From IMG/VR virus record IMGVR_UViG_2778261066_000004: a DNA stretch of 10,212 bases; one strand, written 5' to 3'. Below the pieces are notes generated by a model. That model made no database searches and was not told the origin of the DNA. It saw only the letters and a program-made list of their open reading frames with translations. The position numbers were made by a program, and so were the translations under genes. Shown here one piece after another: positions 6,970 to 10,212 of this stretch; position 1 is the first letter of the stretch, and every line of letters starts with the position of its first letter. Source of the stretch: a virus. Lineage: Duplodnaviria > Heunggongvirae > Uroviricota > Caudoviricetes.

Positions 6970-7915
6970 ACGCCCACTGGTTATAAACACACAGCTTGCG
7001 ATGAAGATTGGCTTAAATGAAGCCATTGTGTTGCAGCAGTTGCATTACTGGTTGAGAGATACCAGTTCCGGTATGGAATGTGACGGGGTTCGCTGGATTT
7101 ATAACACAACAGAACAATGGCTGGAACAGTTCCCGTTCTGGTCAGAGTCAACGTTAAAACGCGCATTTGCAAGTCTGAAAACGCTGGGGCTTTTGCGTTG
7201 CGAAAAGCTCAACAAATCAAAGCGTGATATGACTAATTTTTACACGATTAATTACGAGAGTGAGCTTTTAGATGGTGGCAAAGTGAGCGAATCCATCAGG
7301 TCAAAATGCGCCGCTCCATCGGGTCAAAATGACACGATGGAAGAGGTCAAAATGGCACGCTCCATTGGTTCAAAACGACCCAATGTCATCGGGTCAAAAT
7401 GGCCTGATGATCTTACAGAGAATACAACAGAGATTACTACAGAGAATAAAAACACTTCTCGTCCGGAAGCTTCGCAACCGGACCCGCAGACGGCTGAACA
7501 GGATTTTTTAACCCGACACCCTGACGCGGTTGTGTTCAGTGCGAAAAAACGCCAGTGGGGAAGTCAGGAAGATTTGGCGTGCGCACAGTGGATCTGGGGA
7601 CGAATCGTGAGTCTTTACGAGCAGGCTGCCAGCGATGATGGCGAGATCACGCGACCGAAAGAACCAAACTGGACCGCATGGGCCAATGACGTGCGCACAA
7701 TGCGGATGCTGGATGGCAGAAGCCACAGACAAATTTGCGAAATGTTTGGTCGGGTACAGCGAGATCCATTCTGGGTAAAAAACATCATGAGCCCGTTAAA
7801 GCTTCGCGAAAAATGGGACGACCTGGTCATCCGCCTGGGGCGTTCACCTGTACAGTGTTGTGTGAATCATATTTCTGAACCGGATACCGAAATTCCGCCT
7901 GGTTTCAGGGGATAA
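6950..7915 (+). CDS. Replication initiator (O-like) with DnaT-like C-terminal domain; contains the origin iterons
   Basis: ATG 6950 (MSLLFAERPL…) overlaps the YdaT-like gene end; the ORF track's 6896 start is TTG. C-terminus …VNHISEPDTEIPPGFRG resembles the C-terminus of E. coli primosomal protein DnaT (…SEPDSQIPPGFRG, recalled). The middle of the gene carries five ~23-bp direct repeats. Confidence 0.85.
   Translation: MSLLFAERPLVINTQLAMKIGLNEAIVLQQLHYWLRDTSSGMECDGVRWIYNTTEQWLEQFPFWSESTLKRAFASLKTLGLLRCEKLNKSKRDMTNFYTINYESELLDGGKVSESIRSKCAAPSGQNDTMEEVKMARSIGSKRPNVIGSKWPDDLTENTTEITTENKNTSRPEASQPDPQTAEQDFLTRHPDAVVFSAKKRQWGSQEDLACAQWIWGRIVSLYEQAASDDGEITRPKEPNWTAWANDVRTMRMLDGRSHRQICEMFGRVQRDPFWVKNIMSPLKLREKWDDLVIRLGRSPVQCCVNHISEPDTEIPPGFRG
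7293..7402. repeat. Replication origin iterons: five direct repeats of (T)CCATC(G/A)GGTCAAAATG at ~23-bp spacing
   Basis: Copies at 7293-7309, 7316-7332, 7344-7355 (partial), 7362-7378 (variant ggttcaaaacg), 7388-7402; embedded in the O-like reading frame as lambda ori is in gene O. Confidence 0.65.
7411..7460. other. A+T-rich candidate DNA-unwinding element next to the iterons, with three ACAGAGA(A/T)T repeats
   Basis: 'tacagagaatacaacagagattactacagagaataaaaac' directly follows the last iteron. Confidence 0.45.
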
Positions 7916-7955
7916 GTGGTGATTTTAGGGCATAAAGTAATGTTCAGGAGGACTT

Positions 7956-8363
7956 ATGGCAAAAGTATTTACACAGGAAGAGCGGGAAAAAATTAAAGGA
8001 CAGGTGGTGGAACTCGTGCGCCAGAGCGGTCGTGAGACGTTACGGCAACTGGAAGCTAAAACAGGTGCGACAAGATATCTGATGAGCGTTCTTGCCAGAG
8101 AGCTGGTTGCCAGTGGTGATGTATATCACTCTGGCTATGGGGTGTTCCCGTCAGAACGGGCTCGTAAGGACTGGCAAAACGCCCGCAAAAAACTCTCGAG
8201 GGCAAAGGTGAAGAAACCTGTTGTGGTTGATCCGGGCCTTATCTGGACATTACCCGACGGAGAAATACGCCGCTACGACAGGCGTATGAACATAATCTGT
8301 CGCGAGTGCCGGAAGAGCGAAGTTATGCAGCGTGTATTGGCGTTCTATCAGGGATATGCCTAG
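7956..8363 (+). CDS. Hypothetical protein (135 aa), possible winged-helix DNA-binding protein
   Basis: Consensus SD AGGAGG 5 nt upstream of the ATG; basic C-terminus; no recognisable catalytic motif. Occupies the slot where lambdoid phages carry P/DnaC-like or ren/nin genes. Confidence 0.75.
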   Translation: MAKVFTQEEREKIKGQVVELVRQSGRETLRQLEAKTGATRYLMSVLARELVASGDVYHSGYGVFPSERARKDWQNARKKLSRAKVKKPVVVDPGLIWTLPDGEIRRYDRRMNIICRECRKSEVMQRVLAFYQGYA

Positions 8364-8409
8364 AATTGTCACAGGTAATGAAATTAAAGAGTATTGGTTC
8401 GGATATGAA

Positions 8410-8439
8410 TTGACATTTTCGCGGCACAGAGCTAAAAAT
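8410..8439 (+). promoter_or_regulatory. Candidate sigma70 promoter TTGACA-N17-TAAAAAT
   Basis: Consensus -35 TTGACA (8410-8415), 17-nt spacer, -10 TAAAAA(T) (8433-8439), in the A+T-rich intergenic region ~300 bp upstream of the SIR2-like gene. Confidence 0.3.
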
Positions 8440-8731
8440 AGCCTACTTGTTGGTTTTGTGTGAAAAGCAGACATTTTGAGGCTCAGGATTTGTTATCAAA
8501 TAAGACCAATACTTATCTATATTAATACACATTAAATACTGTGCAATACATTATTGCATTTTATTAGATAAGCGATATTTAGGGAAAAGAAAAGTCATAG
8601 AAAACAGGCCGCTATTTGTTGTTGGATTTTATAGGCTATATCTAGATTATCTTGCCACTGCGGTCTCTGTTTACCTAACAGCTTGGGCTTCTTTGCATGC
8701 AAGTTTGTAATAACAAGTGTAATCAAACGGA

Positions 8732-9763
8732 ATGTCTATTAATCCTAAACTTAAGCGTATCGCGCGACGCTATCCAGCGTTATTCCAATATGAGTCCCCC
8801 TATATGGCAAGAAAATTAATAATATTCGGCAACGGTCTCGGTATGGCTTTAGATCCTGCTCACTTCTCCTTAGACAGAGCGTTGGAAGAAATTTGGCATC
8901 GCCCCAATTTTTTAAAAGATATCCACAAGCAACTTATCGAGCGTTGTCTTCAGCGGCAAGGTCCACCAGAAGGAGAACATGAGTTGGATACCCTTCACCA
9001 GGCTGTCACATATTGTAAAGCTCTTGCTCAAATTGGAGAGGGGAACGTGCATTGGCTTACTGAAGATGGACTAAACTTCCCCAAAATTACCGCCACTTAT
9101 ATTCACAAAGTTGCAACCAGGTTGCATAATTACGATAAAGGTTTGCCACAAAGATTCGAAAATGCGCTTGTGGAGTTTGTAAAGAACACACACTCACATA
9201 TCGCGACATTAAACTATGACAAATTATTATACAATTCATTCATAGATAATGATATATTCAACGGGTATGATGGGGTTTTAGTTGATGGGATGCTAAGCCA
9301 CGGATTTTCCTCTGCAGCGCTCGAACGGAAATACAATCGTAGGTTTGGTTATTATTTGCACTTGCATGGTTCACCACTATTTATTAATCAGCATGAAAAT
9401 GTTTTAAAACTTTCACGCTCACAACTTACTCTTGACATAGATGAACCTAGTGAGCATATAGTGTTAACTCATATAAAAAGAAAACCGTCAGTTATAGCAG
9501 CATCTAATGTTCTTTCTACGTACTGGGATTATTTGCAGTTTGCATTATTTGAATCAGAAGAAATAATATTGTTTGGTTACTCTGGTCTCGATATTCACCT
9601 TAACCTGCTTATTCGACCTTACCTAACCTCTAAGCCTTTAAGAGTAATTGAGTGGAGCGGTGCTGGTGAACAAAACGCTCGTGAGATATATTGGAAAAAC
9701 CAGTTGAGACGGGAAGTTACTGTAATTAGGTTGGATAACATCACTGATTTTATTGATTGGTAG
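8732..9763 (+). CDS. Stand-alone SIR2-like (SIR2_2 / defence-type sirtuin) protein, 343 aa; candidate NAD+-targeting defence effector
   Basis: Ordered motifs: Gly-rich loop LIIFGNGLGMALD, ATLNYDKLL (SIR2_2 'TNYD'), YYLHLHGS ('LHGS' with candidate catalytic His), ILFGYSGLD ('GYS…D'). A+T-rich codon usage unlike the phage backbone. Weak SD; alternative start at Met25. Confidence 0.8.
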   Translation: MSINPKLKRIARRYPALFQYESPYMARKLIIFGNGLGMALDPAHFSLDRALEEIWHRPNFLKDIHKQLIERCLQRQGPPEGEHELDTLHQAVTYCKALAQIGEGNVHWLTEDGLNFPKITATYIHKVATRLHNYDKGLPQRFENALVEFVKNTHSHIATLNYDKLLYNSFIDNDIFNGYDGVLVDGMLSHGFSSAALERKYNRRFGYYLHLHGSPLFINQHENVLKLSRSQLTLDIDEPSEHIVLTHIKRKPSVIAASNVLSTYWDYLQFALFESEEIILFGYSGLDIHLNLLIRPYLTSKPLRVIEWSGAGEQNAREIYWKNQLRREVTVIRLDNITDFIDW

Positions 9764-9833
9764 CGCAATGCGAAGTTAAAGAGGCAGCCTCATATTTATC
9801 AGAGCTGGTGTACGTCCAATACAGGAGGTTATC

Positions 9834-9923
9834 GTGCTGGTTCTCAAATGCGCGCTGGCTATTGCGGCTGTAGTGGCAATTTATTGTCTTGCTATTGTTC
9901 TTATGGATCGCCTTTCTGATTGA
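9834..9923 (+). CDS. 29-codon hydrophobic peptide ORF (VLVLKCALAIAAVVAIYCLAIVLMDRLSD), candidate single-pass membrane peptide
   Basis: GTG start with consensus SD AGGAGG (9823-9828) at 5-nt spacing; almost entirely hydrophobic with a charged C-terminal tail; 70 bp downstream of the SIR2-like stop on the same strand. Below the ORF-track length cutoff. Confidence 0.4.
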   Translation: MLVLKCALAIAAVVAIYCLAIVLMDRLSD

Positions 9924-9973
9924 TTTTATATTGGCGAGGTGACGGGAGTTAAGTAGAATTGCTGCGGGTGCTT

Positions 9974-10102
9974 GAGGCTATCTGCCTCAGGCATGAACAC
10001 CAAAAGGCAGATAGAGAAAAGCCCCAGTTAACATTACGCGTCCTGCAAGACGCTTAATGTTAATCTGAGGCCATATCTATGCGACACATAGAGATTAGCC
10101 TC
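9974..10102 (+). other. Cluster of three hairpins (candidate structured RNA / leader) between the peptide ORF and an ORF starting at the window edge
   Basis: H1: gaggc-tatct-gcctc (9974-9988), mutually exclusive with ctatctgcc (9978-9986) / ggcagatag (10006-10014). H2: 15-bp stem with one mismatch, ttaacattacgcgtc / gacgcttaatgttaa, loop ctgcaa (10028-10063). H3: gaggcc…gcctc with inner tctatg/cataga stem (10067-10102). None is followed by a U-tract. Confidence 0.4.
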
Positions 10103-10212
10103 TTACGGACCAAAAGGTCAAGGAGATGTATGGGTCCACCACATATTGCAATTTTTATTCTCTTTTAAAATATATTCCACGGGCGTCATTAGTGCGAGCG
10201 CCTTGTGGGGTC

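Follow-up and report, generated by a model that had tools for sequence, protein, structure and literature searches.

The 10,212-nt virus record IMGVR_UViG_2778261066_000004, which as a whole is referred to below as the window, represents the left arm of a lambdoid Escherichia coli prophage that is Qin/Rac-like. On its plus strand, at 8732-9763, it carries an open reading frame (ORF) for a SIR2-like protein, which most likely represents a one-gene anti-phage module that depletes nicotinamide adenine dinucleotide (NAD+), and thus an effector of an already well-known kind rather than of a new kind. The gene is solitary, horizontally mobile and patchily distributed, and it sits between two toxin-antitoxin-type positions in a swappable prophage slot. 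SIR2 NADases are among the most widely reused immune effectors of bacteria, and those systems that have been characterised couple the SIR2 domain to a sensor, namely HerA, a TIR/SLOG pair, a STAND domain, an Argonaute or the large C-terminal region of the DSR proteins.

The interpretation favoured here, held with about even confidence, sees in the protein a SIR2 NADase that works without a partner, keeps itself inhibited and serves the lysogen in abortive infection. The enzyme would be made in the lysogen and held inactive, probably through the helical small domain that it contains and/or through its oligomeric state, in the manner of the SIR2 subunit of SIR2-HerA. A superinfecting phage would supply the trigger, upon which NAD+ would be hydrolysed to ADP-ribose and nicotinamide; the resulting growth arrest of the infected cell would abort the infection and protect the sister lysogens together with the resident prophage. 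The NADase activity, the auto-inhibition, the trigger, the expression in the lysogen and the anti-phage phenotype are what we infer and not what was observed here, whereas a defence role is suggested by the anti-phage NADases among the fold neighbours, the intact catalytic residues, the low-GC mobile cassette, its slot and the defence-type neighbours of related genes.

The gene and its motifs comprise the following features.

8732-9763, plus strand: the complete ORF, 343 amino acids (aa).
8732-8803, plus strand: 24-codon N-terminal extension or upstream ORF, with the motif RIALRYPxLFQ.
8804-9763, plus strand: core SIR2-like coding sequence, 319 aa and a stop codon, delimited by homologue alignment, RefSeq start and fold.
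8828-8842, plus strand: GNGLG, the glycine-rich NAD-binding loop following strand 1, checked base by base.
9206-9220, plus strand: TLNYD motif with N161 and D163 (N137 and D139 in the 319-aa numbering), checked base by base.
9359-9373, plus strand: HLHGS motif with H212 (H188 in the 319-aa numbering), checked base by base.
9575-9592, plus strand: GYSGLD motif, running on as xHLN, checked base by base.

An earlier note, made from the letters of this DNA, had described a 343-aa ORF with four SIR2_2-type motifs in canonical order, and all four were located in the order claimed. The profile search it proposed was passed narrowly, as the protein matches Pfam SIR2_2 (PF13289, DHS-like NAD-binding fold) with a score of 26.1 bits, where the gathering cut-off is 24.5 (E=1e-5). 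A word-indexed search of a 5.8-billion-protein set returned 794 homologues, and to judge from about 300 clusters at 50% identity (305 by exhaustive search) the family appears to be widespread in proteobacteria. The ORF is a real gene under purifying selection, far beyond chance, with pairwise ratios of nonsynonymous to synonymous substitution (dN/dS) of 0.06-0.16 relative to five enterobacterial orthologues.

The length of 343 aa holds for the ORF as such, but the conserved core comprises only 319 aa from M25 (8804). Nearly all homologues are 319-320 aa long and align from this methionine, which is also the RefSeq start, and the conserved protein is therefore encoded by 8804-9763. The 24-codon extension is confined to one enterobacterial subclade and is in frame with the SIR2 start in E. 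coli and several metagenomic relatives, its ATG being kept in six of seven diverged leaders. Elsewhere the corresponding region is interrupted by an in-frame stop in Pantoea (leaving a 15-codon upstream ORF), lacks a start codon in Klebsiella, and is absent in Serratia and Citrobacter. The dN/dS of the extension is ~0.5 compared with 0.16 for the core, and in an AlphaFold2 model of the 343-aa form its predicted local distance difference test score (pLDDT) is 54-57; because this confidence is low, the model does not settle whether the extension is part of the protein. It may be an optional N-terminal tail, a short upstream ORF or a regulatory leader peptide.

The AlphaFold2 model of the protein, computed with 64 homologues, reached a pLDDT of 90.2 and contains a Rossmann-type sheet with strands at residues 4-8, 132-135, 182-186, 253-257, 279-284 and 306-310; five helices (residues 23-129) are inserted between the first strand and the second. 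The protein is thus predicted to consist of a SIR2 large domain and a helical small domain. In comparison with known structures, SIR2 folds are the top matches, first of all the SIR2 proteins of SIR2-HerA (fold-comparison figures of 19.6 for 8W9L, 18.6 for 8YHX and 17.8 for 8J4U, with 266-273 residues aligned), followed by KomC (14.5), ThsA (13.8), archaeal Sir2 (13.1), Avs5 (11.9), FAM118B (11.1) and SirTM (10.4); Foldseek is in agreement (E 1e-10). The structure prediction that the earlier note had proposed as a check thus returned a confident Rossmann-type SIR2 fold.

A family profile built from 60 diverse relatives, sharing 29-52% identity, picks out the SIR2 of E. coli Nezha among the PDB entries from sequence alone (E=4e-8). 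In this alignment TLNYD of the family is paired with TTNYD of the Nezha protein, LHLHGS with YKLHGS and GYSGxDxHLN with GFGFGDYHIN. N161 and D163 of the 343-aa form align with N163 and D165 of the Paenibacillus SIR2, and H212 with the KLHGS histidine of the SIR2-HerA SIR2 proteins; a catalytic role has been proposed for N163, D165 and H212 of the Paenibacillus enzyme, in which the small domain auto-inhibits the NADase and the formation of a complex with HerA activates it (PMC11472057). The catalytic Asp and His (H188) are invariant across the 60 relatives and the Asn is nearly so; the Asn/Asp/His triad is intact in this copy. D263 is likewise invariant, while G258, Y259, G261, H265 and N267 are nearly invariant. 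The GNGLG loop, regarded earlier as atypical, is indeed present, but its G-N-G is a trait of the whole family, in which it is invariant, and does not set this copy apart. That the protein is of the SIR2_2 type is borne out by its profile match, its fold and its catalytic residues.

The same data bear on the alternative that the gene encodes a sirtuin that modifies proteins, as a lysine deacylase or a mono-ADP-ribosyltransferase, and not a bulk NADase; the prophage would then modify a host or phage protein, or would deliver a SliP-like effector toward the animal host. This alternative is unlikely. It draws on weak hits to DUF4917 in 16 of the 60 relatives (best E 2.4e-7; the longer relative P0061 scores 18 bits against the 28-bit cut-off), on the report that SliP of Campylobacter jejuni, the only studied DUF4917 member, is a secreted deacetylase (PMC10421069), and on the carriers of the gene, which include porcine enterotoxigenic E. 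coli (ETEC) and Stx2e strains. However, the SIR2-like protein itself gives no DUF4917 hit at E<=1, carries no signal peptide (strand 1 begins at core residue 4), and has no Zn-ribbon or other Zn-binding module because it contains two cysteines only. NADase-type defence SIR2s are clearly the best matches by both structure and profile, and the family is spread over free-living marine and soil bacteria.

The earlier note also supposed that a partner gene may lie beyond position 10212, and this supposition failed, since complete genomes with or without the insertion sequence (IS) that ends the window contain none. In the IS-free complete genomes the genes located 3' of the SIR2 gene are hokD, then Rem or two hypothetical proteins, and then DUF968, RusA and Q. 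Among the other ORFs of the window no match to a PADLOC model was found except for generic helix-turn-helix hits to the repressor, and neither SLOG, TIR, STAND, Argonaute nor HerA accompanies the SIR2-like gene. Neighbourhoods were further compared in 80 loci from other species. All-against-all BLAST clustering of the ORFs within 5 kb in 82 loci left the SIR2 gene itself as the sole universal family, and in a Pfam and PADLOC scan of the two nearest ORFs on each side in 30 non-redundant loci no neighbour family occurred in more than 3 of the 30, with no HerA-like family among those listed for these neighbours. That the gene stands alone, as the note had proposed, is therefore upheld both in the prophage and across species.

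The clade of this gene, which is gammaproteobacterial, is solitary, and the partners found in some sub-branches lie outside it. In eight alphaproteobacterial loci (L046, L054, L056, L059, L063, L070, L074 and L076) a conserved gene for a protein of ~200 aa is located directly upstream, within ~600 nt, and is translationally coupled to the SIR2 homologue (stop and start codons abut or overlap); its product has no Pfam hit, and the arrangement looks like a two-gene version of the family. In Vibrio, the proteins P0042 (506 aa) and P0044 (541 aa) carry a fused N-terminal domain of ~190-220 aa in front of a SIR2 part that is 67-68% identical; the two N-terminal domains are 35% identical to each other and have no Pfam match. 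Homology between the alphaproteobacterial partner and the Vibrio domain was considered and rejected, as none was detected by BLAST or hidden Markov models. In the Rhodobacteraceae loci L058, L064, L065 and L067, distant members of the family (38-43% identity) are located directly 3' of a putative pncB on the same strand, a gene that we take from its sequence to be nicotinate phosphoribosyltransferase. All four loci are syntenic and therefore count as one observation; the adjacency would tie a putative NAD consumer to a gene of NAD salvage.

These neighbourhoods bear on two further readings. It is distinctly unlikely that the protein is half of a two-part system with a partner encoded elsewhere, either a HerA-like ATPase of the host or phage, or an activator supplied by the phage as a stable complex partner. 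Its closest relatives, the SIR2 proteins of SIR2-HerA, are inactive alone (PMC11472057), and both the coupled ~200-aa gene of the eight alphaproteobacterial loci and the fused domain of Vibrio are additions found in sub-branches of the family; on the other side, no recurrent gene family occurs beside the gammaproteobacterial copies, the cassette transfers between contexts as a single gene, and the other ORFs of the window are devoid of PADLOC hits apart from generic helix-turn-helix hits to the repressor. A bolder version of the preferred interpretation, which we regard as possible but doubtful, is that the gene encodes the smallest self-sufficient SIR2 immune module, in which 319 residues, comprising the catalytic and helical small domains only, both sense infection and destroy NAD+. 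Sensing could proceed via the small domain or an oligomeric change, or alternatively control could be exerted by the conserved leader and the upstream ORF, and the family would repeatedly have gained add-ons, such as the fused domain in Vibrio and the coupled partner in alphaproteobacteria.

The mobility of the gene is evident from the segment in which it is located and from the flanks of this segment.

7956-8363, plus strand: DUF977 gene (Pfam DUF977, E=1.7e-29), the last of the replication module and the left flank outside the cassette.
8364-8731, plus strand: low-GC intergenic leader with 34% GC, recognised by composition.
8410-8439, plus strand: promoter-like site TTGACA-18-AAAAAT within the leader.
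8455-9777, plus strand: mobile cassette of the conserved leader and the SIR2 gene, delimited by blastn against locus L090.
9781-10126, plus strand: hok/mok leader and sok antisense RNA region of a type I toxin-antitoxin system (Rfam sok at 9966-10132, 108 bits), the right flank outside the cassette.
10127-10212: end of an IS481-family insertion sequence, with the junction at 10126/10127.

The low-GC tract at 8364-9780 has a GC content of 37.8%, compared with 46.8% for 1-8363. The SIR2-like gene itself has 39% GC, and its GC content at third codon positions is 0.34 versus 0.45-0.53 for most neighbours and 0.40 for the repressor. Beyond the tract, the hok/sok leader (9781-10126) has 46% GC and is followed by the IS end. 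The compositional contrast on which the earlier note based an A+T-rich insertion is thus real, but the length is 1.4 kb (8364-9780) and not 1.9 kb. An 88%-identical homologue at locus L090 is found in an unrelated context, adjoining a TacA/TacT-type toxin-antitoxin pair, and blastn comparison of the window with this locus revealed homology over exactly 8455-9777 (86.9% identity over 1325 nt), a span that takes in the gene together with ~280 nt of its leader and 14 nt beyond its stop. At the right edge, homology of the hok leader to other phages and prophages and to BL21 begins at 9781-9811, and at the left edge prophages without the SIR2 gene are homologous up to ~8472-8475. Therefore, a cassette of ~1.3 kb has been inserted between DUF977 and hok. 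A 12-nt direct repeat, GAAATTAAAGAG at 8380-8391 and GAAGTTAAAGAG at 9772-9783, flanks the low-GC segment; it was rejected as the cassette boundary, its right copy being at the edge and its left copy off it, and as chance alone should give rise to 12-nt repeats with two copies in this DNA, the repeat may be fortuitous.

The leader is ~87% identical overall between the two genomic contexts, and ~93% in the last ~80 nt before 8732, which exceeds the conservation of the synonymous sites of the gene (coding dS 0.33). It can be aligned among three close sequences only and is not conserved in more distant orthologues. No conserved ORF was found in 8364-8731 and no Rfam family in the leader, sok downstream being the sole Rfam match; no strong or clear promoter-like site was found within the cassette itself (8455-9777). 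A near-palindrome, TGCAATACATTATTGCA, is located in the leader at ~8542-8558.

Conservation of the leader above the synonymous-site level between two contexts, as well as the toxin-antitoxin nature of the adjoining modules (hok/sok here, relBE in Qin), would be in line with a selfish addiction-module toxin for which the low-GC leader and its short upstream ORF act as the antidote or brake that stabilises the cassette. This is highly improbable, given that the leader is not conserved in more distant orthologues, matches nothing in Rfam and shows no sign of an antisense RNA; moreover, addiction and abortive infection can coexist.

The prophage accessory slot postulated in the earlier note is borne out by the variable cargo at this position, just after the replication module. 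In the Qin prophage of K-12 relBE is located directly upstream of hokD, BL21 has no equivalent of 8253-9810, and in other strains the genes following DUF977 include a BCCT transporter, a set of hypothetical genes together with a DUF4145 protein, or a cytosine methyltransferase accompanied by small ORFs. The hok/mok leader with sok (9781-10132) is complete and is 88-95% identical to the mokW/sokW regions of Stx phages and Rac. The IS481-family element directly follows the hokD Shine-Dalgarno sequence (AAGGAG), 9 nt ahead of the hokD start codon of IS-free relatives, so that translation of the Hok toxin from its native leader has probably ceased in this prophage. Many porcine ETEC/Stx2e strains share this IS insertion. 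Of 5,426 complete E. coli genomes, 46 contain near-identical DNA; porcine ETEC or Stx2e strains account for many of these carriers, and the carrier prophages use at least two integration sites, tRNA-Ser/mtfA and ompW.

Copies that are 70-82% identical occur at unrelated loci in Klebsiella, Serratia, Pantoea and Citrobacter. In Klebsiella the gene is inserted by itself among core genes, in Citrobacter it adjoins a DNA methyltransferase gene and Hachiman within an island bounded by an integrase, the Serratia copy is located ~1.1 kb from SoFic, the Pantoea copy adjoins a P2-type Ogr gene, and the P0002 copy adjoins a TacA/TacT pair. Neighbours in other species include PbeA, PLD-helicase, SNF2/DrmD-like and AAA_15/AAA_21 proteins, integrases and transposases; the literature also mentions uncharacterised genes with SIR2 domains in the hotspots of P2/P4. 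In surroundings that resemble defence islands, an uncharacterised gene immediately upstream of the orthologue codes for a 680-aa protein with a weak AAA_16 hit in Serratia plymuthica (L087, 5812-7854) and for a 376-aa protein with no hit in Citrobacter farmeri (L096, 5613-6743); the two proteins are unrelated to each other in the clustering.

The position of the gene within the prophage could also be taken to indicate a role in the lytic cycle or in counter-defence, exerted from the early-right transcript by remodelling host NAD metabolism or by destroying NAD-derived immune signals. The orientation of the gene matches that of cro, the replication genes and Q, it is located between the replication module and the Q antiterminator gene, and its cassette has no strong promoter-like site of its own. 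Such a role is nevertheless quite improbable, because homologues are absent from sequenced phages, no viral predicted structure resembles the protein (best BFVD match E=1.6e-3), most homologues are chromosomal and located outside prophages, and the slot is dispensable, the segment being missing in BL21.

Several observations weigh against an auto-inhibited defence NADase as well. The SIR2_2 score of the protein barely exceeds the threshold and its PADLOC matches are weak; it has no separate sensor domain, and its nearest structural relative needs HerA for the activation of the NADase (PMC11472057), while no HerA is found here. The deacetylase activity reported for SliP points the other way too. 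As the orientation of the gene is that of the early-right operon, it is possible that it is expressed in lytic growth rather than in lysogeny. Many homologues are located among housekeeping genes (ThiC, MetH, GatB, enolase), and the defence genes found near others are individual cases, uncorrected for the background rate. Finally, none of 50,697 sequenced phage records contains a homologue, and among 72,556 plasmid records a single one does.

The remaining genes of the window are arranged as follows.

279-1298, minus strand: integrase.
1608-4043, minus strand: 811-aa protein with an Rv2179c-like exonuclease domain.
Between this gene and the DicA-type repressor: DUF1482 and DicB.
5749-6156, minus strand: DicA-type repressor.
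6234-6464: Cro.
After Cro and before the replication-protein-like ORF: YdaT.
6896-7915: replication-protein-like ORF.
After DUF977: the low-GC stretch with the SIR2-like ORF, then the hok/sok locus, then the insertion sequence end.

In the 811-aa protein the Rv2179c-like 3'-5' exonuclease domain is C-terminal and the central region is long, acidic and Gln/Glu-rich; RefSeq labels its relatives 'exonuclease' (YdfE-like). Its last ~50 residues look atypical, which a frameshift might explain. Neither Pfam nor PADLOC gave a match for a 128-aa ORF at 5043-5429 (minus strand), which lies between DUF1391 and the DicB/DUF1482 region. A 74-aa ORF at 8250-8474 (minus strand), called as a gene in one metagenome assembly, runs antisense to the 3' end of DUF977 and the first part of the intergenic region; it is probably spurious, its family match being a sub-threshold Pfam hit alone.

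If a family of ~320 residues works alone, it would offer a handy minimal model of how SIR2 enzymes are restrained and activated, and the contrast with its HerA-dependent nearest relative would add to the value of such a model. A true defence function would also mean a one-gene system to be added to defence-annotation tools, and defence cargo for the replication-to-hok slot of Qin/Rac-like prophages, including the Stx2e-converting prophages of porcine E. coli. Should the protein instead be a protein-modifying sirtuin or a partner-dependent subunit, it would be a routine find.

Comparison with known systems agrees with the earlier statement that the gene matches no named architecture, as its architecture is unlike that of Thoeris, DSR1/2, SIR2-HerA, Avs5 (SIR2-STAND) and pAgo-SIR2, and its PADLOC hits are remote. 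The best of these are Aga_SIR2 (3.8e-6), PDC-S21 (8e-6) and SIR2 PDLC04093 (6e-5), and among the 60 relatives the best PADLOC score is ~1e-12 to 1e-13, so that the similarity is at the level of the superfamily and not of membership of any model. Pfam SIR2_2 matches 59 of the 60 (best E 6.4e-13), while NCBIfam, PHROGs and a single-sequence search of the PDB gave nothing useful. No paper was found on RefSeq WP_000101550 or WP_000101549, on PDC-S21, or on SIR2 with Stx2e.

In contrast to ThsA of Thoeris and KomC of Kongming, the present protein consists of one SIR2 domain only, which stops at residue 319, and carries no ligand-binding SLOG or Macro domain. No TIR (ThsB) gene is present in the prophage and there is no KomA or KomB nearby, and in contrast to Avs5/SIR2-STAND no STAND NTPase domain is fused. 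The SIR2 of the short prokaryotic Argonaute system SPARSA (pAgo-SIR2; Aga_SIR2) gives the best PADLOC hit, and 56 of the 60 relatives match it weakly, but there is no Argonaute/APAZ and the fold similarity is low (8JL0, E 1.7e-3, TM score 0.44).

A single-gene logic, in which one polypeptide combines the NADase with presumed sensing, is shared with DSR1/DSR2 and with sole-Sir2. DSR1 and DSR2, reportedly presented by Garb et al. in 2022 as single-polypeptide SIR2 defence, are proteins of ~1,000 aa with large sensor domains, whereas the protein studied here has 319-343 aa and its relatives nearly all have 310-365 aa; no DSR chain was among the fold matches listed. Sole-Sir2 is a single-gene system whose protein of ~440 aa has NADase activity, and protection against T2 and T4 was seen with one of its close homologues (bioRxiv 10.1101/2024.12.27.630466); its SIR2 domain is DSR2-like and is accompanied by an additional N-terminal substructure, in contrast to the SIR2 large and small domains only that are found here.

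DUF4917 (PF16263) and PDC-S21 are alike in being stand-alone proteins of ~310-340 residues that are SIR2-like over nearly their full length. The former, with a gathering threshold of 28 bits, is distinguished by the missing hit noted above. The single-gene PADLOC candidate PDC-S21 (PDLC04960/PDLC04961) is matched at 23 bits over the N-terminal two-thirds only, and its hits in 46 of the 60 relatives (best E ~1e-12), like those of DUF4917 in 16, are far too weak for membership.

The closest fold and PDB-profile match is the SIR2 of SIR2-HerA (Nezha; 8W9L, 8J4U, 8SUB, 8YHX), which is of the same size class (360-415 residues versus 319) and shares the positions of the Asn, Asp and His; a Zn-ribbon is lacking in the present protein. 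The identity is 14-17% only, the PADLOC SIR2 models are matched at E 5e-5 or worse, and there is no adjacent HerA either in the prophage, where the neighbours are DUF977 and hokD, or in the 80 other loci. The suggestion of a minimal or new SIR2 module is thus supported as far as a lone SIR2 of 319 aa is concerned, but its novelty is reduced by two partial precedents, sole-Sir2 (~440 aa) and PDC-S21.

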